DNA of 64,000 bases from assembly GCA_963575745.1 (NCBI GenBank), contig CAUYUJ010000004.1, positions 124,001 through 188,000 on the forward strand, read 5' to 3'. Below, one piece after another: positions 38,868-57,200 of this stretch (its first letter is position 1; each line of letters opens with the position of its first letter). A program made the translations under genes and the position numbers. The stretch comes from Prorocentrum cordatum. Its lineage: Eukaryota. The notes below the pieces were generated by a model that was not told the origin of the DNA, ran no database searches, and saw only the letters and a list, made by a program, of their open reading frames with translations.

Positions 38868-38893
38868 TCGACGACGACGACGACGAAGGCGGC

Positions 38894-38925
<32 letters not shown>

Positions 38926-38926
<1 letters not shown>

Positions 38927-39539
38927 TGGTGGGAGTCGTTGGGGCCCCTCGTGGTGTGAGTCGTTCGGCCCCATCGTCCTTGTGTGAGTCCTTCGGGCCC
39001 CTCTTCCTGGTGTGAGTCGTTCGGGCTCCTCGTGGTGTGAGTCGTTCGGGCCCCTCGTCCTGGTGTGAGCCGTTCGGGCTCCTCGTGGTTCGAGTCGTTC
39101 GGGCCTCTCGTCCTGGTGTGAGTCGTTCGGGCCCTTCTTCCTGGTGTGAGTCGTTCGGGCTCTTCGTGGTGTGAGTCGTTCGGGCTCTTCGTCCTGGTGT
39201 GAGTCGTTCGGGCTTCTCGTGGTGTGAGTTGTTCGGGCCCCTCGTCCTGGTGTGAGTCGTTCGGGCCCCTCCTCCTGGTGTGACTCGTTCGGGCTCCTCG
39301 TGGTGTGAGTCGTTCGGGGCCCTCGTCCTGGTGTGAGTCGTTCGGGCTCCTCGTGGTGTGAGTCGTTCGGGCGCCTCGTCCTGGTGTGAGTCGTCGGGCC
39401 CTTCCTTCTGGTGTGAGTCGTTCGGGCTCTTCGTGGTGTGAGTCGTTCGGGCCCCTCGTCCTGGTGTGAGTCGTTCGGGCTCCTCGTGGTGTGAGGCGTT
39501 CGGGCACCTCGTCCTGGTGCGAGTCGTTCGGGCCCCTCG

Positions 39540-39540
<1 letters not shown>
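38926..39540. repeat. 25/28-bp minisatellite TGGTGTGAGTCGTTCGGGC(T/C)CCTCG(TCC)
   Basis: About 23 adjacent units with no unique spacers. Confidence 0.92.
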
Positions 39541-40070
<530 letters not shown>

Positions 40071-40529
40071 CTACAGTCGAACAGCTATCTCCGAACAGCA
40101 ACCCCAGCGAAGCATGCCGACAGTCGTTTGGTGCAGGCGTGTGTCTGCCTGCCTTCGCATATATCCTCTGTTCCTATTTCCTTCTGCCTCCTTGTACATC
40201 CTCCTTGTGGGGGAGCGCGAGGAGGACGAGTCGGAGGAGGAGGAGGGAGTGAAGGAGTTGGGAGGCAAGACAGAGGGCGGTCGTCGTCGAGTCCAGCGAT
40301 CTCCCCCGACCAGTTGTGCAGCGAACGTGGCTCGGCACGGATGCGCAGGACTCCCTCATCGCAAGGTGTGGGAACCATGCGCGTGATCTCTGCGCCGCTC
40401 GTAATGGCAAGGTGTGGTAACCCATCCGCGACGACGACGACGATGGCGAGCGATGAGGGCGACGACGACGACGACGGCGACGACGACGGGTCAACCAATA
40501 GGGCGTTTCTGGGCATTTCTCTCTGAAGG

Positions 40530-40687
40530 TGCTGGGAAGTTTGTAGTTTTACATATATATGTGATTATAGAGAATATAATCAGACTGTCCTGGAGGATCC
40601 AGGAAATCCTGCAGCCCTTTGTTGCTCGAGGAAAAGAGCGACCCTCACCTCCCCCCTTTCTCCGCGAGGGGGGTGGGTGCGCGTGCA
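40530..40687 (+). repeat. 5' LTR (158 bp)
   Basis: TGCTGGGAAG...GCGCGTGCA; identical by eye to 47456-47613. Confidence 0.96.
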
Positions 40688-40699
40688 TGGTAGCGGAGC
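40688..40699 (+). promoter_or_regulatory. Primer-binding site (initiator tRNA-Met type)
   Basis: TGGTAGCGGAGC immediately after the LTR; complementary to a tRNA 3' end ...GCUCCGCUACCA. Confidence 0.85.
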
Positions 40700-41119
40700 T
40701 CGCTTGAGGTTCGCGGGCCGCTCCGCACCCCAGCGAGCTCCAGGAGCCCCTCGAGAGGGCCCAGCGGCGCGACGCCGCGGGTCCGGCAGCCAGCGGGACG
40801 ATCCACGCGGCTGCCGAACGAAGTACCCCTTGCTGGTCAGAGCTGCGGTCAGACCCGCGCTCTGGCAGCGGAGGCCAGCCAGCCAACAAGGGCAAGGGCA
40901 AGGCCACGCTGAAGGCCAAGAAGCCGAACAAGCGAGGAGGCAGAGCGGCGGACACGCGTGAGCACCGCCAGCTACGAGGGACCGCTTTTAGGAAGCTTGC
41001 GGCGTGCGGCAGCAAGGCGAAGCTCACTCAGGAGGAGCGAGCAGCAGTGAAGAGGCAGCTGGCGAGCGACATCGAGAGGCTGGAGAAGCGTGTCACTGAC
41101 GTGCTCGACGACGACCAAG

Positions 41120-44100
41120 ATGGAGCAGCAGCTGCAGCAACTGGTCGATCAAGTTCAGAGACTGACGACGGAGAGTCAGAACATGAGGCAGGAGCTTCAG
41201 AACAGGGACGTGCAGATCGCAGAGATGAGAGGACAACTGCAGGGTCAGCAGCAGGCTCAGCAGCAGGCTCAGCAGCAGCGGGTAGCCCCGCGCGGCGAGA
41301 TGATGGATCCGAAGATCCTTCACAAGGTGAAGCCGTTCGACGGCCAAAGGTCAAGCTGGAAGACGTTCAGCTTCCAGTACAGAGCGTACCTGATCGCGCA
41401 GGATCGGAGGTACCGAGATCTTCTGGAAAGGTGCGAGGACGGAGCCCAGGAGGTGGACAACGTCAACCTGGACCCGCAGGAGGAAGAACTCAGCACGCAG
41501 TTGTACTACGGCCTGGTCCTGGCCATGCCCGAGGACTCGGTGGGCGAGCTGATCGTGAGGAACAGCCCAGTAGGAGAAGGAGCCGAGTGTTGGAGGAAGC
41601 TTCAGAAGGAGTACAACCCGAGCGAGGCAGGCAACGTACTGGCGATGTGGACCAAGCTCACGGACACGAAGTTCGACGCCAAGGAAGACGTGATGGTGAG
41701 CATCAGCAAGCTGGACGAGGACATGGCGAGGTACCAGAAGATGGCAGGAGAGGCCGTCTCGGACCTGATCAAGCGCGGCATCCTCACAAAGGCGCTGAAG
41801 GATCACGACGAGCTCCAGAAGCACGTGTTTCGGAACAGCAGTCGGTTAAGTACGTACGAGCTTCTGAGAGCCGAGGTGGTGTCGGCGTTGGCGGCAGAGC
41901 GAGCGGTTCAGGACGACCCGATGGAGATCGGAGCGCTGAAGGGCGGAAAGAGACCGTGGAAAGGCCGCGGCAAAGGGAAAGACGGCAAAGGCAAGGAGAA
42001 GCCACCGAATCCCGACGCCGAGATCGAGTGCCACTACTGCCACAAGAAGGGTCACCGCAGCGCAAACTGCCGAAAGCGGATCGCCGACGAGAAGAAGACA
42101 CCCGAGAAGGACAAGAAGGACAAGAAGCAGTTCCGAAAAGAGAAGGCAAAAGAAAAGAAGAAGATCGGGGCAGCGGCAGTCAGGGAGCTCGAAAGGTTAC
42201 GACAGACAGGAGTGGGCACAGGATCAAGCTCGACAGCACCGACACAACAGATGCTAGGAAGTCAGGGAAGCGCCGACAGCGCGATGACTCAGCAGGTGCT
42301 GCGCCCAGTCAACTGTGCGCTGCGAGCGAAGATGATTCTGGCCCTGAGGGCAGAGGTCACAAGAAGCGCAGCCACACGATCGACTGGAAGTACTGCTTGC
42401 CTAGCTACTACCAATATGTATGCTGCTCTTGCAAGAAGACCTTTGAAGGACGGCGATGGCACTACGATCAGTGGAAGCTGGACTACTGTGCCGTGTGTGC
42501 CGAGTACTGCCTGGACGGCCTCAAGGACGGGGAAGAGCCAGACGACGACAAGAAGCCAAAGAAGCGCAAGAAAGGCTAGATTCGTCGCTGACGACCGTCA
42601 GTGCTGCGATATGCCAGCTGCGGTGAGCCCCGCGCTGGCCGGCCCCAGGCCTGTTACCATCGCTGGTCTTCGGCCCGTGGATGAAGATCAGAGCCCTGCG
42701 GATGACCGATTGCGGTTAGCCCCGCTTCGGAATGCGATCATGCTCGATTCAGGTGCGCAGATCAGTGCGATACCGAGGTCACAGGTGACCAAGCACAACT
42801 ACACGCCGACGGACAGCAACGTTGTCGGCTTGAAGGGCATAGGAGGCGAGGAGATCGAGAGGTACGGCCACGTGGAGCTGAACCTATCCCGAGGAGGAGA
42901 GGTTATTCAAGTCGGTGCTGAGGTTGCCGATGTGGAGTACCCAGTTGTGGCTACAGACGCTGTAGTACAACGTGGTCAGAGTGTTCTTCATAGCCCTGCA
43001 GGTCACTGGATCATCAACGGTACCATCGAGCCACCTGATGGAGCTGAGTTCGTACCTCTACGTCGTCACCAAGGCAACTACTACTTAGAGTACGATCACA
43101 TCATCGACGGCCAGACTCAACCAGAAGCTTCAAAGGTAGCTGCGGTACGAAAGACACTACCAAGGAAGGTACCAGCTGAACAGGAAGCTGGAGCTTTGCC
43201 GAAGGTTCTAGGTCCCGAAGCTGATGAGACCACAACTGTGCCAACGAGAGTGTTGAAGACTCCTCACCAACCTAGTGCTGCGGAGAGAGCCGCGCACGAA
43301 GGGCATCATCTACCTTTTCGGCCTTGGTGTCCCATCTGCGTGCAGGCTCGAGCAGACGATGACCCCCACCACGCTCAGGAACCAGCTGATGAGAACAAGA
43401 TCCCGAAGGTGGTGTTCGACATCTTTTACGTAGGGACAGACCAGCTGGCTGCGAAGTACAAGCTTAAAGGAGGTTACTTCAGCATCAGGGAGAAGACGTC
43501 GGTCACGAAGGCCGAGTTAGACCAAGCGGTCTCTGTCTTGAATGTTATCGACTGTAAGATCTTGGCTCAGGCGACGTTGTACGCGAACAAGGAGACGGAT
43601 GACTACAAGGTGTCCTTCCTGCTAGGCGTGCTGGAAGCTTGGGGTCACACAACAGTCATACTTCAGACAGACCAGGAGCCTGCCACCATGGCTCTGGCGC
43701 AGGCAGTTCGAGATCGCAGATCACACTCAACCTTGGTGCGGGGATCACCGCCCTTTTCCAAGCAGAGTGCAGGCTACGCTGAAGGAGGTAACAAGCTAGC
43801 AGCTGGTCTACTTCGAGCCTACAAGCTGAAGCTGGAGCACAAGCTGGGCAGCGAGATCAAGATGACGGATCCGATCGTGCCATGGCTTGTGAACTCAGTG
43901 GGGTGGATGATCACCAGATTCCAGCCTCGCAGTCACGGAGGTTCCTCCTACAAGATGCTCTACGGCAAAGAGTACAACGGCGAGATTGCGGAGATGGGTG
44001 AGCAGGTCTGGTATCGGATCTCAGCCCGAGTTGCCGCGGGACGTGGCAAATGGGAAGCCCGCTTCGCAAAAGGAATCTGGGTTGGTAAGAGCGAGCTGGA

Positions 44101-44839
44101 CGACGCACATCTCGTGATCGATCCTGAACGTGGAGTGCAGAAGGTGAGAACGGTGCGAAGGATGCCTGAGGAGTTCAGGTGGCAGCCCGAGCTCATCCAG
44201 CACATCAGGGTGACGCCCTGGAAGCAGACGCCCGACAAGAGTTCAGGAACGATCGGACGCAGCATGTACATCACGGAGCGCATGATCGATGCTCATGGTC
44301 CTACCGACGATTGCAGGAAGTGCAGTACAGGATACGGTTCGCATTCGGCATCCTGCCGACAGCGTTTCGAGACCATTCAGGCCGACTTGCTGCGCGAGAA
44401 GTTGGCGAAGGACCCTGTGGCCCCTGAGGCTACAGTCGTGGTGCCAGCGCCGGCTGCGGGAAGCCCCGCGCCTGGAGCCGCACCCGGAGGAGCAGCGGCA
44501 TCAAGCAGCAGTGAGGTTGCGGTGAGCCCCGCACCTGCTGCCAGTGACGTAGCTATGGTTCCTGGCCCAGGAGAGGCTGAGGTGCAGACAGCCATGGACA
44601 CGGAGAGTGGAGAGCTCAGGAGCGACTTTCGGCGAAGCGCCCCAGGTGAAGTTCGTGAAGGAGCTGAGGTCAAGAAGCCCAGGGTAGCAAGCATTGGGCA
44701 TCTCTCTGTCTGTGAGTTGGCAGTCTGCGAGGAGGGCTACGACGAGAGCTTCGACCCCATGTGGGATCCACACCCAAAGCGCAGTGCGAGATGTTCCGAG
44801 AGGTGTGAGAAGCACTCATCACGATGCCAGCTACGATAA
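41120..44839 (+). CDS. Copia Gag-protease-integrase polyprotein, ending at a single in-frame TAA
   Basis: ATG at 41120; Gag PFDGQRSSW and AECWRKLQKEY; CCHC knuckle CHYCHKKGHRSANC; aspartic protease IMLDSGA; integrase H-x3-H...CPIC and D(VFDIF)-D(QTDQE)-E(GYAE). Confidence 0.93.
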   Translation: MEQQLQQLVDQVQRLTTESQNMRQELQNRDVQIAEMRGQLQGQQQAQQQAQQQRVAPRGEMMDPKILHKVKPFDGQRSSWKTFSFQYRAYLIAQDRRYRDLLERCEDGAQEVDNVNLDPQEEELSTQLYYGLVLAMPEDSVGELIVRNSPVGEGAECWRKLQKEYNPSEAGNVLAMWTKLTDTKFDAKEDVMVSISKLDEDMARYQKMAGEAVSDLIKRGILTKALKDHDELQKHVFRNSSRLSTYELLRAEVVSALAAERAVQDDPMEIGALKGGKRPWKGRGKGKDGKGKEKPPNPDAEIECHYCHKKGHRSANCRKRIADEKKTPEKDKKDKKQFRKEKAKEKKKIGAAAVRELERLRQTGVGTGSSSTAPTQQMLGSQGSADSAMTQQVLRPVNCALRAKMILALRAEVTRSAATRSTGSTACLATTNMYAALARRPLKDGDGTTISGSWTTVPCVPSTAWTASRTGKSQTTTRSQRSARKARFVADDRQCCDMPAAVSPALAGPRPVTIAGLRPVDEDQSPADDRLRLAPLRNAIMLDSGAQISAIPRSQVTKHNYTPTDSNVVGLKGIGGEEIERYGHVELNLSRGGEVIQVGAEVADVEYPVVATDAVVQRGQSVLHSPAGHWIINGTIEPPDGAEFVPLRRHQGNYYLEYDHIIDGQTQPEASKVAAVRKTLPRKVPAEQEAGALPKVLGPEADETTTVPTRVLKTPHQPSAAERAAHEGHHLPFRPWCPICVQARADDDPHHAQEPADENKIPKVVFDIFYVGTDQLAAKYKLKGGYFSIREKTSVTKAELDQAVSVLNVIDCKILAQATLYANKETDDYKVSFLLGVLEAWGHTTVILQTDQEPATMALAQAVRDRRSHSTLVRGSPPFSKQSAGYAEGGNKLAAGLLRAYKLKLEHKLGSEIKMTDPIVPWLVNSVGWMITRFQPRSHGGSSYKMLYGKEYNGEIAEMGEQVWYRISARVAAGRGKWEARFAKGIWVGKSELDDAHLVIDPERGVQKVRTVRRMPEEFRWQPELIQHIRVTPWKQTPDKSSGTIGRSMYITERMIDAHGPTDDCRKCSTGYGSHSASCRQRFETIQADLLREKLAKDPVAPEATVVVPAPAAGSPAPGAAPGGAAASSSSEVAVSPAPAASDVAMVPGPGEAEVQTAMDTESGELRSDFRRSAPGEVREGAEVKKPRVASIGHLSVCELAVCEEGYDESFDPMWDPHPKRSARCSERCEKHSSRCQLR

Positions 44840-46207
44840 TGCCACCAAGCTGAGTGTGCATGCAGGAGATGTTTGATGAGCCACATCGGCACAATCAGGA
44901 GCCACTTCGGAGATCCTGAGGAGCAGCAGGTGGAGCAGATGGTTGAGGTGAGCGCCGAGCTGCATGAGAAAGACCAGTGGAGCCCAAAGACGATACACTA
45001 TGATTACTACACTGGAGAGCCTCTGGATGAGGACCTGTATCAGAAGGGTCGCGACGACGAGCTGCAGGCCATGAAGGACTACGGGGTCTACGTGGAAGTG
45101 GCGACATCGACGGCGACCGACGGCAAGCACATTGGAGGTTTCCCGATAGCCCACATGAAAGAAGGAAAGGTCAGGTGGAGGTTCGTAGCGACCGAGGTGA
45201 ACAAGTACGAGGTCAGGGAGGACAACCACCAAGGCACGCCCCCGCTCATGATCGTCAGAGCGACGCTGAGCCGTGCCGCTTCAAGTCCAACTTCCAGCGG
45301 GCAGCACCTGCGGAAGATACAAGTCTGGGACGTCAGGAAGGCTTTCTTCAACGCTGACTTAGACGAGACGATCTACGTGCATCCTGGGAGAGAGCTGTGT
45401 CCGCCTGGAAGGTGCTGGTGGTTACGCAAGGCCATGAACGGTACCAGGAAGGCGTCGCAGATGTGGGGTGAGCTTGTGAGAACTACTATGGACGACGGCC
45501 ATTGGGAATGCTTGGTTGGAACTCCTAACGTGTTCTACTTACCTGCTAGCCCCAACACAGCCCCCTTCGACGAGGATAGCACAGCGATCTGCCATGGCGA
45601 TGACTTTCTTGCTGAAGGCTACGACGAGCAGCTGGACGAGCTGGACGAGTTGTTGAAGCAGCAGTTTGAGGTCACGGCCAGCGCCAGACTTGGACCAGGA
45701 GCGGTGGGGCAGACTACATACCTCAAGAGGACGATCGGCTACACCGACAAGTTGCCAGGTTGCGAGGAGCCAGGTTTCTTCTGGACTGCCGATCCCAAGC
45801 ATGTGGACTTCATGATCAAGTGGACGCAGAAGCGAGGTTGTAAACCAGCTCCCACTCCAGGGACGAAAGCTACAGGACAAGGCCGACGAGACAGCCTAGA
45901 CCTTCTTTCCAAGGATCGTGCTCGAGAAGTGGCGGGTGCAGCTGGCACCGCTCTTTACCTTTCTTCGGACAGGCCCGACACGATGTACGCCAGCAAGACA
46001 GCGATGCAGCACGTCTCCAACCCGAACGTCTTGATGCATGCGCGTGTTCAGCGACTTGGAAGGTACTACGAAGGACAGCCTGTGTTGGTCTGGTGTTACC
46101 CACTTCAAGGTACTCCTGAAGGCATTCGTGTAGATGGTGACGCGGATTGGGCACCTACGAGTGAACTACAGCGGCGATCTACCAGTGGAGGAGCTGTGAG
46201 GTATGGG
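44840..46207 (+). CDS. Copia reverse transcriptase and start of RNase H, in the same frame as Gag-IN
   Basis: DVRKAFFNADL, LRKAMNGTRKA, ICHGDDFL (YxDD equivalent), VDGDADWA...RRSTSGG. Confidence 0.93.
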
Positions 46208-47244
46208 ATCACACTTGGGACTGCTACTCAGTGACGCAGAGTACGATAGCCCTAAGTTCAGGGGAATCCGAGATGTACGCTACGGGAAGTGCGACAGCCA
46301 GAGGACTTCAGTGTAAGACTTACCTGATCGAGACCCAGAGGCCCTGCAACCTGAAGATCTATAGTGACAGCACAGCTGGACGTGGCATGTGCAGTCGAGT
46401 TGGGGTGGGCAAGGTCAGGCACCTGGAGTTGAGGTACTTGTGGATTCAGGAGCGGTTGCGTCTCAAGGCGTTCGAGCTGCACAAGGAGGACACCAGCAAG
46501 ATGACAGCCGACATGCTCACGAAGTACAGCGAGTGGCCGACAATCGAGAAGCATTGCACCACTCTCAACCTCAGGTTCGGAAAGCAGTTGAAGGGCTTGA
46601 GCGCAATGGCAGTTTTCACGGAGGTCGTGACGAAGGCGTCAGGCGAGAAGGTGACAGTGTACGGAGGTTCTGACGAGGTTGCGGTTTGCCCCGCGCCTGT
46701 CAGCCACTACGTGGACAGCGAGGAGTTCTGGTTCTTCCTGAAGTTGGGACTAGTTGTGGTGACTGCAGCCAGTGCTTTCTTACTGGGGTGCTGGTGTGGT
46801 TGTTACTTCAAGGACTTCTACGACAAGTTCCTCCTCCAGGGTGCGGTTGACCCCGCCTCTGGAAGCACGTGTATACCATCTGCGCGGGCTGAGGCCGAGT
46901 TCAAGACCGTGTGTGTACAGCAGGACAAAGGAGCAAGGCACAAGCTCTTAAGCACGTTTCTTGTAGCTGAGCTGCGAGCTGTCTTGAAGGCCAAGAGCCT
47001 GGCCGTGTCAGGGATCAAGGAGGACCTGGTCACGAGGATGATCAAGCACGGATGCGTTCTGTCGGATCGCCAGGCCAAGGAGATCGAGCAGCTGCGAGTG
47101 ATGGCTACAGCGCGAGGACCTCTTACCAAGCTCAGCTTGCAGGACATCAGCAGTCCAGAGGCCGCGCAGAAGTGGATCGAGACGTTCAAGAGCGAGTGCG
47201 GAGACCGTTCCAGAGGCTCTCAGGTGATCCACGGAGAGGGCTAG
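46207..47244 (+). CDS. Remainder of RNase H after a 1-nt frameshift, plus a ~220-aa extension with a TM helix and SAP-like motif
   Basis: DHTWDCYSVTQSTIALSSGESE, IYSDS, RHLELRYLWIQE, ADMLTK; then FWFFLKLGLVVVTAASAFLLGCWCGCYF and LSTFLVAELRAVLKAKSLAVSGIKEDLVTRM. Confidence 0.88.
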   Translation, partial: DHTWDCYSVTQSTIALSSGESEMYATGSATARGLQCKTYLIETQRPCNLKIYSDSTAGRGMCSRVGVGKVRHLELRYLWIQERLRLKAFELHKEDTSKMTADMLTKYSEWPTIEKHCTTLNLRFGKQLKGLSAMAVFTEVVTKASGEKVTVYGGSDEVAVCPAPVSHYVDSEEFWFFLKLGLVVVTAASAFLLGCWCGCYFKDFYDKFLLQGAVDPASGSTCIPSARAEAEFKTVCVQQDKGARHKLLSTFLVAELRAVLKAKSLAVSGIKEDLVTRMIKHGCVLSDRQAKEIEQLRVMATARGPLTKLSLQDISSPEAAQKWIETFKSECGDRSRGSQVIHGEG

Positions 47245-47446
47245 GAGAATGGTCGCAGGAAGCACTACGACAGCCGAAGGTGAGCTTTCTTTTACAGGCT
47301 GCGGTTTGCCCCGCGCCTGCCCTCTGCGGGTAGCCCCGCGATGGGCTTAGGCGGGCAGCGCCGTTGCGAAGCCTGCTCAGGGAGCACAAAGTGGTTTCCC
47401 TGTGGCTCACGTTTCTCGACTGGAGGCCGAGCCGCTTCCAGCGCCC

Positions 47447-47455
47447 AAGGAGAGG
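47447..47455 (+). promoter_or_regulatory. Polypurine tract
   Basis: AAGGAGAGG abutting the 3' LTR. Confidence 0.85.
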
Positions 47456-47613
47456 TGCTGGGAAGTTTGTAGTTTTACATATATATGTGATTATAGAGAA
47501 TATAATCAGACTGTCCTGGAGGATCCAGGAAATCCTGCAGCCCTTTGTTGCTCGAGGAAAAGAGCGACCCTCACCTCCCCCCTTTCTCCGCGAGGGGGGT
47601 GGGTGCGCGTGCA
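47456..47613 (+). repeat. 3' LTR (158 bp)
   Basis: Matches the 5' LTR and is followed by the TSD GAAGG. Confidence 0.96.
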
Positions 47614-48026
47614 GAAGGCATAGTTCGGAGATTGGCAGTGAGCTTAGCTCTGCCCATCCAGCAACCTGTTCGACCAGTTGTGCAGTGATATCTAGAGACC
47701 GCCAGCGGGCTACACCACACCAAGAACCAAAAACCAAGAAAGGAACCAAGAGCCAGCAAAGGCGAGATTGGAGGAATCAGCAAAGGAGAGATTTCAGGAT
47801 CCACACCGCACTGCACCGCACTACACCACCCCGCACGAATACCACGCCACACCGCACCACGCCGCACCACGCCGCACCGCACCACACTAGACACCACTTC
47901 TCACCAGTACGCACCATCAGACGACGACACTACAGCTCAAGAGGCCCCCAGGAAGCGCCACGAGGTCACCGAGGCTCTCAGGAGAGGCCCAAGTCTCTAT
48001 TTTCCTCCAGCGTTGTCGTCGTTGTT

Positions 48027-53531: not shown

Positions 53532-54260
53532 CTAGCGGCGGCCGCGGCCACCGCCGCCACCTCGGCCCCCCTCCGTCCGGCGGTGCTTGCGCCCAGGGAG
53601 CTCGTCATCGCCGTCTCCGTTCTTCCCGGCAAGCCAATCAACCAAGTACTTCACGAGCGGGCCGTCCTCAGTCTTGGCCGGAGCCACGGTGAGGTTGTCG
53701 TACTTGGTCTCATACGCTGCCGCGATGACGAGGGCATCACGAAACTCCTGCGGCGCTGCCATGGCCACCACGAGGTACCACACCCACGGGCGTGTCGGGT
53801 CCGCGTGCGGGTCCAGGTGCTTGGGCTTGAGGCGGAAGACTGACCGCTCGATGGCCGGGCCGTCCATGTTGTTGAGGTAGTCGAGAGCGGTCTTCACCCT
53901 CGCGTCGTGCTGGCTGCCGTCCCCCTTCTGCTTGTAGGTGTCCTTCATCGTGACCACCATGCGCGCGAAGAGGATCACACGCTGCGAGCACCCGGCGGGA
54001 TGTGGAGACCCGTCCGACGGCTTGGCATCCCGCCACTCCTTCCGCTGCTTCACCACCTGGTCTTTGACTGCTGGGTCTTTGAGCACTACAGCGATCGTGG
54101 ACCGATCCGCGAGCTCGGCGATCGCCCTGTCGTGTGCCACAAGCAACTGGGCCATCGCTCGCTGGACGCCTCCGGGGCGCGCCCCGGGCCTGGCCTGCAA
54201 CGCCGGCGCCGGCTGACTGGCTCCCGCCGCCGCCGCTCCGTCGAGAAGCGCCTGCGCCAT
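53532..54260 (-). CDS. 242-aa uncharacterised ORF downstream of, and overlapping, the LINE RT ORF
   Basis: Intact, non-repetitive, GC3-rich frame MAQALLDG...MAQLLVAHDRAIAEL...PWVWYLVVAM...GRGRR*. Confidence 0.65.
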   Translation of the reverse strand: MAQALLDGAAAAGASQPAPALQARPGARPGGVQRAMAQLLVAHDRAIAELADRSTIAVVLKDPAVKDQVVKQRKEWRDAKPSDGSPHPAGCSQRVILFARMVVTMKDTYKQKGDGSQHDARVKTALDYLNNMDGPAIERSVFRLKPKHLDPHADPTRPWVWYLVVAMAAPQEFRDALVIAAAYETKYDNLTVAPAKTEDGPLVKYLVDWLAGKNGDGDDELPGRKHRRTEGGRGGGGGRGRR

Positions 54261-57200
54261 GACTACTGGCAGGAAGCGCTGTCCAACGAGCGTGCTGAGC
54301 CGAGGCTTCCGCTGGCGTAAGCATGTGTTTGTACTGACCAACTGGAATGCCACTCACAACGCAACGTTTACGGCATGCACCAGAATGAACACGCAAATGG
54401 AAAATGGATGGATATCGGAGGCCACAATGCTCACAACACAACGTCCATTGCATGACAGCGGCCGGACCGTATTGTTTCAACTGCGATGCCAAGATCCGTG
54501 CCCTCGCCTCCTGCACGGCTTGCTCCGGATGCGGGAGCCCAGGGGGAAGGGCAAGGGGAGGGGGGGAGGGGGGAGGGGGAGGGGGAGCGGAGGCAGAGGA
54601 GGAGGAGGAGGCAGCCGCAACAGCAGAGGGAGGAGGCGAGGGAGGAGGAGGGCCAAGGAGAGGGACAAGGTCAAGAATTTTGTCGTGTTGACCCTGCGCA
54701 ACCGCCGCCTGTCCGGCAGGTGTCTGCCGCCCTGGTTGCCTCCGCTTTTGTTGCCGCGCCGTCAGAGTACGAGAGCTCTCTCCGACAGCCTTGCAACTGA
54801 GCCTCTGGTGTTGTTTCAAGCTTCGGCGCTGCACCTGCGTACCACAATTCGGACATGGGACAAGCTCGAGAGACTGTGCTGTGGCCGGGCGACGGGCCGG
54901 GCGAGGGGCGACATCCTCGTGAGCCACCACCGCCGCGGTGTCCGGCCGAGTGTTGCGAGGAATGCGTCTGCCCACGTCGTCAGCACGAAGCTCCCGACGC
55001 ACGCGCAACTTTTCCTCCTCCTCCTCTGCGTTGCGCATGTGGTGAGAGTCTAACGAATCCACCTTGCGACGCCATGCTGTCCAGGCCCCGACCGCGCGCT
55101 GCCAAGCCTCCCGGCTCGCAGCCACCGTCTTCCAAGCGTGTTCGTCGTCGGCTGGGTGACCGCCTTCTCGCATAACCTGACGGAGAAGTTCCCGGCTCTG
55201 GCTCCGCCACGTCGTACCCTGCTTACTGGCGCGGGGCACGGAGCCTTCCGGAGCGAGCTGTCCGAAAGCGAGCTGGCGTTCCAAGCGGTCCGTGGGGTAA
55301 CGACACAAGTGACCAAGGTAGCCAAGCTTGCGTTTACCGATGGCAGTCTCAACAGTGTCAATGCCGACCCGCTCGCGCAAGTCTTGCATTGTCAACTTTC
55401 CTTTCATGTCCATCATGGTAAACTTCTGGCTGAGGGCAATGCCCCGGACACAACGATTCATGAATGACTGATACATGCCCAATTCCTTCGTGGTGAATGG
55501 TCTCACCTCCGACCCGTAGAGTAGGGATGCCTCCACTGTCGCCCTGAGCACCTCGCCTTTTTGGCGTAAGGTTAGTCCCAGGCGCGGGAGTTGCCTGTAG
55601 ACTTTGTACCAGATCTTATTGGCCTTCTTAATCCGCTCATTGGTACCTTTCAGGGTGTCACCGGTGGAGGACAGCCAACAACCGAGCAACTCTGCGTGTT
55701 CCGTAAACTGCAATTCCTCCGCGGGCTCCGAGGCAGGGTCTGGGCGGCCGCGGCGGGCAGGACCCTTGCCGCGTAACCTGCGTGCCTTGCCGGGCGCGGG
55801 GACCGGGGCTGGGGCAGAGGGCTGTGCCACGAGGGAGGAACGGTCTGCCGGCCCTTTGCCTCGAAGTCGTCGCCTACTCGGGATTGGGGGGTCGACCGCT
55901 CTCTTAAAGCGCACAAGCTGCCACTTGTCCGGGTGTACAACTTCGCACCAGTCCGACAGAATGCGCGTGACCAGGCGCTTGCGGTCCTGGACCGTCGAAA
56001 CCCGTTCGAGTAGGGTCGTATCATCGGCAAAACACAGCATGCGCAACAGCACTTTCTCCCATTCTTCCTGCACGCGCTTGAAAGCATGCGCCTGCAGACC
56101 ACCAATGGGAGCCTCGGGATGAGTGCGTACCTCCACCGCCGGTCCTCCTGCAGAGTCCATGTGGTTACAGTAATCCCGCAGGACGGCATTGTGAAAGAAC
56201 AGGTACACTACGCAAGAAGATGGACAGCCTTCTCTCAAACCTTTCGCCAGTTGGTACCGCTCGCTAACCCCAAGCTGATTGCGGCACACATAGTGTGTGT
56301 CAGAGTGAATGTGTGTCAGCAAGTTCACAACATGAGCGGGCACGCCTTCGTTGCTGAGGATTCGCCAGGCCGCGTTCCGAGGAACGCTGGGATAGGCCTT
56401 CTGGATGTCCAGCAAAGCCACGCAGAGATCATCCAGGTCCTCGCTGCGAACCTTGGTGACCGTTTCGACTAGCAGCCGCGCCACGAGGACCACATCTATA
56501 CAAGACCGGTGGGCTTGAAACCCCCACTGGTCGGCTCGAAAGATGTGGTGTTGGCGAGCATAATCGCTGAGTCAAACTGCTACGACGCGTGCAACCACTC
56601 TACTCACGATCGACAACAGACAGATACCACGATAGTTGGTCAGCTTGCTGCGGTCGCCCTTTTTGAACAGGGCTATCACTTCCGCTGCATGTGCCTCCTC
56701 CTCCCAACTATCTGGCGCCTGCCAGTACCGGCGTACAAGGTCAAAGAAACGCTGTTGCAGAGCAGGGGCCGCAAGGCGAAGCATATTTATCGTCACCTCG
56801 TCCGGGCCTGCAGCGCTTTCCTTCATTTTTCCACACCTTCTGTATCTCTGCACCGGAAGGAATATCCGCGAGAGACTCCTGGGTGGGGCGAGCAGCCGGG
56901 AGGCGTTCCAGCACTGACTCCGCGACAATCGATTCGTCCCGTCCGATGCTGTGGAAATGCTCCCGGAGCTGCTCTGGTGTGTGTTGAATCCGACCTTTCA
57001 TTGTGCTGCCCGACATCGTAACGCCGAGTTCTCTCAAGCCTGCATAGAAACGGCCCTTGTCCCCCAGTGCCGTGGCGTGTTCTAGCTCACGCACAACGCT
57101 GTCAACCCATGCCCTGCGCCACGTCCGTCGCTTCCGACGGAAAGCCGCCTTCTCCTGGCGTAATTGTTCTCGTAACTGCACCTCCCGGCTGGCAGCAGGA

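Follow-up and report, generated by a model that had tools for sequence, protein, structure and literature searches.

The dinoflagellate Prorocentrum cordatum carries a complete Ty1/copia-like long terminal repeat (LTR) retrotransposon at positions 40530 to 47613 of the 64,000-nucleotide stretch analyzed here (contig CAUYUJ010000004.1, positions 124,001 to 188,000 of the forward strand; hereafter the window), and the gag core of this element is overlapped from end to end by a second open reading frame (ORF). We refer to the gag-pol frame as frame A and to the second frame as frame B. Over gag, frame B is free of stops beyond what composition predicts; upstream it covers a leader module with coding-type variation, and downstream a conserved finger, basic tail and stop. 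The explanation that we favor, tentatively and at chances slightly short of even, is that the element truly uses frame B as a second coding frame, for one overprinted protein with a non-AUG start in the leader.

Frame B occupies 40708-42579 of the plus strand. Its 623 codons include no ATG and lie between a TGA at 40705-40707 and the TAG stop of the frame at 42577-42579. These limits come from a stop-to-stop listing and agree, as does the translation, with the original prediction, which had been made from the sequence letters before the present analysis. The frame is positioned at -1 relative to gag, so that the third base of each gag codon is the first base of a frame-B codon. Its translation contains no Met and ends in CCSCKKTFEGRRWHYDQWKLDYCAVCAEYCLDGLKDGEEPDDDKKPKKRKKG, followed by the stop. 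The gag core in frame A extends from ATG 41120 to 42340 on the plus strand, includes a CCHC knuckle at 42029-42070, and lies entirely within frame B. GC content by codon phase points to frame B at 40990-41110 and again at 42370-42600, and to frame A at 41110-42190.

The absence of stops over gag (41120-42340) was compared with 3000 synonymous-codon shuffles and 3000 codon-order shuffles. No frame-B stop is observed against means of 8.3 and 9.0, respectively, and zero was reached in 0/3000 shuffles of either type, so that the frame is more open than chance would allow for. Each half of gag is depleted on its own, with P(0) of 0.008 and 0.014 for the synonymous shuffles and of 0.0014 and 0.0034 for the codon-order shuffles. 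The same frame in two parts of pol contains 32 and 18 stops versus 42 and 25 expected, so that stops are also slightly depleted in general, by roughly one quarter.

The codon context of gag follows a simple rule, in which T at the third position (T3) is tolerated almost exclusively before C. Before codons starting with C, T3 is as frequent in gag (23/68) as in pol (68/206; Fisher p=1), whereas before codons starting with AA, AG or GA it is absent from gag (0/87) and present in pol (50/250; p=1e-7), and before the other non-C codons it is found in 3/102 cases in gag versus 126/452 in pol (p=1.4e-9). Pooled over all non-C codons, the counts are 3/189 in gag and 176/702 in pol. At fourfold-degenerate sites before non-C codons, gag never uses T (0/125), whereas pol does so in 120/469 cases and an ORF elsewhere in the window that resembles a long interspersed nuclear element (LINE) in 78/379. 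Read in frame B, codons of the type T[A/G/T]N, stops included, are purged over gag, and TCN (Ser) alone is tolerated. The purge is present from the first 100 gag codons; T-initial frame-B codons return from 42385, in the finger itself, and are common in pol past the frame-B stop. Over gag, frame B contains no Phe, Trp, Met, Asn or stop, and one each of Tyr, Cys and Ile, whereas Gag back-translated with pol codon usage predicts 23 stops, 10.6 Cys, 6.8 Asn, 6.3 Ile, 5.8 Tyr, 4.4 Phe and 4.2 Trp. In the -1 frames of pol and of the LINE-like ORF, Asn, Lys and stops are somewhat scarce, which fits a general avoidance of A-A and T-A codon junctions; Cys and Trp are not scarce there.

Other causes of the T3 pattern were considered and rejected. 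High GC content at third positions (GC3), which the original prediction had cautioned might by itself suppress stops in this frame, is not a sufficient cause, since T3 before C is unchanged and only T3 elsewhere falls to near zero. Avoidance of UpA and UpG in the RNA does not account for a pattern that is specific to one phase, CTG and GTG being common in gag (by eye, uncounted). T-to-C editing with a neighbor preference is disfavored because the share of T at fourfold sites moved mostly to G, not to C. An ORF on the minus strand was also rejected: TCA is frequent in the relevant phase and minus-strand ORFs are short. Finally, gag and pol lie on one strand in a single ORF, where mutation bias or translational selection would be expected to act on the two alike. 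The pattern is read most simply as a constraint that frame B imposes, specific to phase and region. The two signs by which overprinting is recognized, an alternative frame open beyond composition and a constraint at the synonymous sites of gag, are both found here.

Downstream of the gag core, frame B enters a cassette of about 300 nt (42353-42703, plus strand). The interval between the ALRA and RLAPLRNA motifs comprises 117 residues in the window and 17 in the distant relative P0008, as aligned by BLASTP, which indicates that about 300 nt were inserted in the lineage of the window; the P0008 lineage lacks the cassette. In frame A the cassette is a poorly conserved linker, S/T/R-rich as had been noticed originally, and the openness of frame A across it is unsurprising (P 0.16-0.24). 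In frame B it encodes a finger at 42379-42516 (plus strand), with the pattern IDWKYCLP..Y.C.SC.K.FEG.RWH...W.LD.C..CA..CLD, and a basic tail, KKPKKRKKG, that together with the TAG stop occupies 42550-42579 (plus strand). Six Cys and one His of the finger (C8, C17, C20, H30, C39, C42 and C46) are invariant in four intact sequences, down to 57% identity, and the surface positions show conservative variation among them. Four further sequences (P0007, P0017, P0018 and P0022) have lost Cys residues and look decayed. The basic tail and the stop are retained, with differing sequence, in P0015, P0016, P0017, P0024 and a P0002-type variant. A HMMER scan with the finger over 1.84 billion representatives returned 11 matches at E<=0.001, seven from the element family and four repetitive proteins judged by eye to be unrelated; a query with the 120 C-terminal residues matched P0015 only.

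The finger had been likened to a ZZ finger without its middle Cys pair, and this likeness stands in part. A search of the finger profile against PDB sequences gave five matches up to E 10, and the nearest solved look-alikes are ZZ domains: 2fc7_A and 6e83_B (the ZZ of ZZZ3) come first, at E 0.18 and 0.25, and 6ds6_A (the ZZ of p300) comes fifth, at E 5, values that are not significant. The alignment pairs CxxC, G-x-R-W-H and LD-x-C-x-x-C with the same spacing as in ZZ fingers, and the outer CxxC...CxxC pairs are present and invariant. In contrast, the middle CxxC of the second zinc site is missing, with HYDQW, HFDQW, HYAQW or HFAEW where ZZ has H-C-x-x-C, and the finger of the window has extra conserved Cys residues in YCLP and YCLD. 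No significant Pfam family was found for the finger, and the ZZ family itself (PF00569) was unmatched at E<=1 in all eight aligned sequences (seven relatives and the window). A language-model atlas gave leads only, at 0.89 (C1, KKT2-3 and ZZ clusters), and two AlphaFold models were too poor for a fold search (mean predicted local distance difference test scores of 50.8 and 45.8). The term ZZ-like is thus used here for an apparent, weak resemblance and not for membership in the ZZ family.

Upstream of gag, the leader module in frame B extends over 40798-41119 (plus strand; the 5' limit is approximate) and is basic and coiled-coil-like. Variation was read from contigs of four public runs (4 of 24 listed), placed on 40500-43000 at 80% likeness; this comparison gave 207 variable places, and the site-level results concern the 40 that are listed. 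Nine of the 13 listed variants in the leader (40812-41115) fall on third positions of frame B and are synonymous there (p=0.009), and two of the 13 would be stops in frame A. The length differences between window-type and P0002-type sequences are apparent multiples of three (3 nt at 41110, 36 gap letters in one contig over 40839-41316, and seven residues in the leader), and these two lineages, about 11% diverged, have the same frame offset between leader and gag. The leader is therefore coding in frame B. Pfam matches to the module were sub-threshold only, and the language-model atlas gave no lead for it. The gag core behaves differently: of its 18 listed variants, 12 hit the third base of a frame-A codon (p=0.004), so that it evolves under frame-A constraint and leaves the frame-B sequence free to vary. 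Judged from the sequences, selection acts on the finger, tail, stop and leader module as coding sequence in frame B, in line with the original view that both ends of the frame look like real protein.

The stretch 40527-41125 contains three ATGs, at 40559, 40687 and 41120, and the leader has about 430 nt without ATG in any frame after 40687. ATG 40687 straddles the junction between the LTR and the primer-binding site, in frame B, and forms a mini-ORF with six further codons and TGA 40705-40707. In-frame near-cognate codons with a purine at -3 include ACG 40798 and CTG 40843 (G at -3). The junction ATG, the TGA and the in-frame CTG are all at the places first reported for them. The suggestion that 40705 is a sense codon in other copies is not confirmed, no variant being present there among the 40 listed of the 207 variable places. 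ATG 40687 is unlikely as a general start, since TGA 40705 follows it and the upstream stretch is not kept in frame: from 40708 to about 40825 the frame is not maintained in at least one lineage, and a loose contig end after 40719 may hold a TAG in frame B, its alignment being uncertain.

According to our favored explanation, frame B would be read as a single protein of about 580-620 residues in three parts. An N-terminal basic, coiled-coil-like module would be encoded in what is otherwise the gag leader. It would be followed by a linker of about 400 residues, probably disordered, overprinted on the entire gag core and kept open and free of aromatic residues, Cys, Asn, Ile and Met by the third-base choice of gag. 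The third part would be the acquired cassette, with a ZZ-like Cys/His finger that may bind zinc, a basic tail resembling a nuclear localization signal (NLS), and its own stop. Most ribosomes would scan the ATG-free leader and start at gag ATG 41120, to produce Gag-Pol through the cassette in frame A, and a minority would start upstream at a near-cognate codon, for example CTG 40843, and read frame B. Gag would thereby be constrained mainly by frame A, and frame B via its first codon base only. That the purge covers all of gag and that the leader is coding in the same frame favors one continuous protein. The relative P0024, from a lineage with 74% identity in frame B, has a 17-nt deletion followed by 251 frame-B codons that end at the usual stop, which shows that in this lineage, too, frame B is unbroken across the last 40% of gag. 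The purge of non-stop T-initial codons might reflect selection for a disorder-type composition.

A bolder form of this explanation is possible, although we consider it doubtful. Frame B would then be a third gene besides gag and pol, of about 600 residues, with a non-AUG start in the leader, overprinted on the whole of gag as a selected disordered linker, and ending in a degenerate, one-site ZZ-like finger and a nuclear-localization tail. Its product might travel with the nucleic acid of the element into the dinoflagellate nucleus, which is poor in histones, or anchor that nucleic acid on chromatin, and a gag dual-coded over its full length would be a first among LTR retrotransposons.

Several observations weigh against translation of frame B as one protein. 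Its 623 codons contain no ATG, and the non-AUG start is a candidate only. A variant with 1 nt fewer at 41110 places the leader in frame with gag and not with frame B, at a depth of 13.7 of 39.4 in run X1, 71.9 of 153.5 in X2 and 0 of 25.4 in X3; since the offset of the window is common to the P0002 forms, it is probably ancestral to both types and we take the in-frame variant as derived. A lineage in X2 and X3 has 37 other letters in place of the 72 nt at 40753-40824, which is out of frame. The leader RNA (40688-41130) is strongly structured (-221.5 kcal/mol, z -5.2, 0/100 shuffles as good). Over gag, stop avoidance alone does not explain why non-stop T-initial codons are purged as well (the 3/102 above), and another constraint, one that we have not considered, could be the source of the purge. 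The listed gag-core variants nearly all change the frame-B residue, with no sign of constraint at the sequence level, and P0024 has one Trp in the overlap, a sign that other lineages tolerate exceptions to the purge. All codon statistics at the DNA level come from one copy, which is defective in pol, and the codon-context controls cover pol and the LINE-like ORF, which leaves room for a codon-pair habit of highly biased host genes. Finally, the whole frame-B translation matched none of the proteins of 342-1091 residues (8000 candidates, filled by low-complexity words); this null result has little weight, as gene callers favor frame A.

The original prediction had left two possibilities side by side, a dual-coded accessory protein and a fusion of Gag with the finger. 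In the latter, only the cassette part of frame B would be translated, as an alternative Gag C-terminus: a late-gag -1 shift, RNA slippage or a small splice would yield a Gag-finger-NLS product stopping at 42577, and unshifted reading would yield Gag-Pol. Retroelements commonly make Gag and Gag-Pol via recoding or splicing, the cassette is an ill-conserved linker in frame A, and P0022 and P0024 are mutated single ORFs that pass from frame A to frame B through indels. A GT..AG stretch at 42196-42308 (113 nt) would also join the frames, and one of four gene models (P0004) uses it. These models, P0002-P0005, nevertheless bridge the frames at four different places, some via introns of about 28-30 nt, and such differing bridges and small gaps look like predictor fixes rather than a shared intron. 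No X XXY YYZ heptamer is present in frame A over 41120-42580, where two relaxed matches only were found (41944 and 42439), and 40688-42700 contains no homopolymer of five or more. Contig joints within 41120-42600 were absent from the four runs, of which the certain RNA did not cover gag, except for two low-depth skips in X2 (4.3 and 4.6); neither the joints nor the cover of the RNA run X20 says anything about splicing or expression. A late shift would not require a purge of T-initial codons from the first gag codons onwards, and the fusion leaves unexplained both this purge over the first 300 gag codons and the coding of the leader in frame B. The codon context thus fits dual coding better, and we regard a fusion as unlikely.

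Three unrelated things might also have come to share one frame by accident, the leader being a Gag N-terminal extension that the 1-nt variant has in frame and the window copy out of frame, the cassette being separately expressed or simply carried, and the T3 context having some other cause. The 1-nt variant at 41110 is listed as commoner than the window form in X1 and X2, murine leukemia virus (MLV) glyco-Gag is a precedent for an upstream, non-AUG, in-frame Gag extension, and, given a 1-nt offset, the leader would land in the frame of the cassette about one time in two. The purge of non-stop codons likewise hints at a broader constraint. This account is improbable in our judgment: the offset is probably ancestral, which would make the in-frame form a derived one, and the T3 pattern is phase-specific, as the common CTG and GTG codons of gag illustrate, and region-specific within one ORF, being absent from pol, which argues against mutation bias and translational selection, just as the gain of G argues against editing. 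Least probable of all, and very unlikely, is that the cassette is a relic, a captured host coding fragment with finger, tail and stop that landed out of frame, frame B being untranslated today. Its absence from the P0008 lineage, the unsurprising openness of frame A across it and the existence of decayed fingers (P0007, P0017, P0018, P0022) would suit such an origin. Yet no host donor is found among the 11 finger matches, neutral decay would not keep the six Cys, the His, the basic tail and the stop down to 57% identity, and the evidence from leader and gag would be left unexplained.

ORFs that begin at a non-AUG codon upstream of the main AUG are known from Sendai virus, where C' overlaps P, and from MLV glyco-Gag, and the candidate start of frame B is likewise a near-cognate codon upstream of the main AUG. 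As with Sendai C', an ORF in another frame lies over the main gene, and the overprinted part has a biased composition and is under loose constraint. Unlike in either system, the predicted overlap here spans the entire gag (about 407 codons) and ends in an acquired folded domain; glyco-Gag, moreover, is in frame with Gag, which is true here of the 1-nt-fewer variant only. Recoding at the end of gag is known from the +1 shift of Ty1, the -1 shift of retroviruses and the spliced Gag-only RNA of copia and EVD. The element shares with these systems two potential products of one RNA that diverge after gag and an alternative frame that ends shortly before the protease. It differs from them in that unshifted reading would give Gag-Pol and shifted reading the shorter protein, and in that neither a slippery site nor a homopolymer nor a shared intron came to light. 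The available parts of the literature on dinoflagellate copia elements, overlapping frames in gag, and overprinting or ZZ domains in retrotransposons describe no second frame across the gag of an LTR retrotransposon. In the accessible portion of a paper on the P. cordatum nuclear proteome, retrotransposons appear in passing only, without the element studied here (PMC10449503).

Translation of frame B, if it occurs, would have consequences of interest. Compact viruses are the familiar setting for overprinted genes; retrotransposons of very large genomes, which have no space limit, could then still evolve dual coding, the synonymous sites of one gene could by themselves sustain a long disordered protein in another frame, and dinoflagellate elements would bring their own accessory factor with a finger and an NLS. 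The rule that T occurs only before C at synonymous sites is simple and can be carried over to other genes as a test for hidden -1 frames. For annotation, all four of the close gene models examined (4/4) stitch the two frames together via implausibly small introns. Seen on their own, these models, P0002-P0005, join frame-B pieces to frame-A pieces through introns that are differently placed and partly tiny, and they probably misrepresent the element.

The termini of the element were delimited by repeat comparison, which gave direct repeats of 161 nt at 40527-40687 and 47453-47613 that are 100% identical. Within them, the 5' LTR (40530-40687, plus strand, 158 bp) has TG...CA ends and an identical 3' counterpart at 47456-47613. 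The target-site duplication GAAGG (40525-40529, plus strand; second copy at 47614-47618) and the primer-binding site TGGTAGCGGAGC, which abuts the 5' LTR at 40688-40705 (plus strand), were both read from the sequence; we take the latter to resemble the 3' end of an initiator tRNA. The pair of TG..CA LTRs, a 5-bp duplication and a primer-binding site beside the LTR are as in Ty1/copia retrotransposons. So, apparently, is the order of a gag with a CCHC knuckle, protease, integrase and RVT_2-type reverse transcriptase, in a frame that is a single ORF of 2036-2045 codons in intact relatives. Unlike in these retrotransposons, the leader of the element is coding-like, a second frame runs the length of gag, a finger cassette separates gag from protease, and RNase H is followed by a hydrophobic stretch and SAP domain.

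Gag matches Pfam Retrotran_gag_2 at E 1.1e-4 and 22.2 bits, below the curated cut-off of 27. The first part of pol, in frame A (42581-44836, plus strand), includes the protease motif DSGA at 42746-42757 and an integrase region, and ends at an in-frame TAA at 44837-44839. The second part (44840-47244, plus strand) comprises RVT_2, at 28.9 bits below its curated cut-off of 31.6, a frame break at about 46165-46234, and then an RNase H-like part, the hydrophobic stretch and the SAP domain. By eye, the order of domains is DSGA, then H..H..C..C, then RVT_2, with integrase ahead of reverse transcriptase. The copy in the window is defective in pol through the TAA at 44837-44839, where relatives carry Glu, and through the frame break at about 46165-46234. 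This pol is thus broken, the second lesion lying just before DHTWDCYSV, despite the identity of the two 158-bp LTRs. After the RNase H-like part, within 46165-47244, the hydrophobic stretch reads FWFFLKLGLVVVTAASAFLLGCWCGCYF and is followed by the SAP domain at 23.9 bits, which equals the Pfam cut-off. Both features are also present in the relatives P0002-P0005, P0030 and P0035, and a C-terminal extension of this kind is unusual among copia-type elements.

A protein query with the first 560 residues gave 13 relatives at E<=0.001 among 8000 scored candidates. Ten of them are named in their sources as gene models of P. cordatum, and the other three are ENA proteins without a name; the database names are those of copia-type Pol polyproteins. 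Two cluster members, P0030 and P0035, are unbroken frame-A ORFs of 2045 and 2036 residues, which indicates that the element, when intact, has a single long gag-pol frame. For the DNA of relatives, no confirmed locus emerged from JGI metagenomes, GTDB genomes or IMG/VR when these were scanned with alignments of gag and of the finger. X20, the one run that is certainly RNA, covers 40575-40730 and 40887-40920 only. P0018 (87 residues), a decayed finger ORF in frame B, comes from EukProt, where it is assigned to a Pyramimonas transcriptome, which suggests RNA of the element family, or contamination by it, in a data set from a non-dinoflagellate.

Elsewhere in the window, the ORF that served as a codon-context control (53737-56571, minus strand, 944 codons) has a reverse transcriptase-like FADD motif, identified by eye, and is probably a non-LTR (LINE-like) retrotransposon. 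The flanks of the element (38870-40070), like much of the window, consist of very long arrays of trinucleotide and 25-28-nt repeats, and most of the long ORFs in the window are translated repeat arrays.

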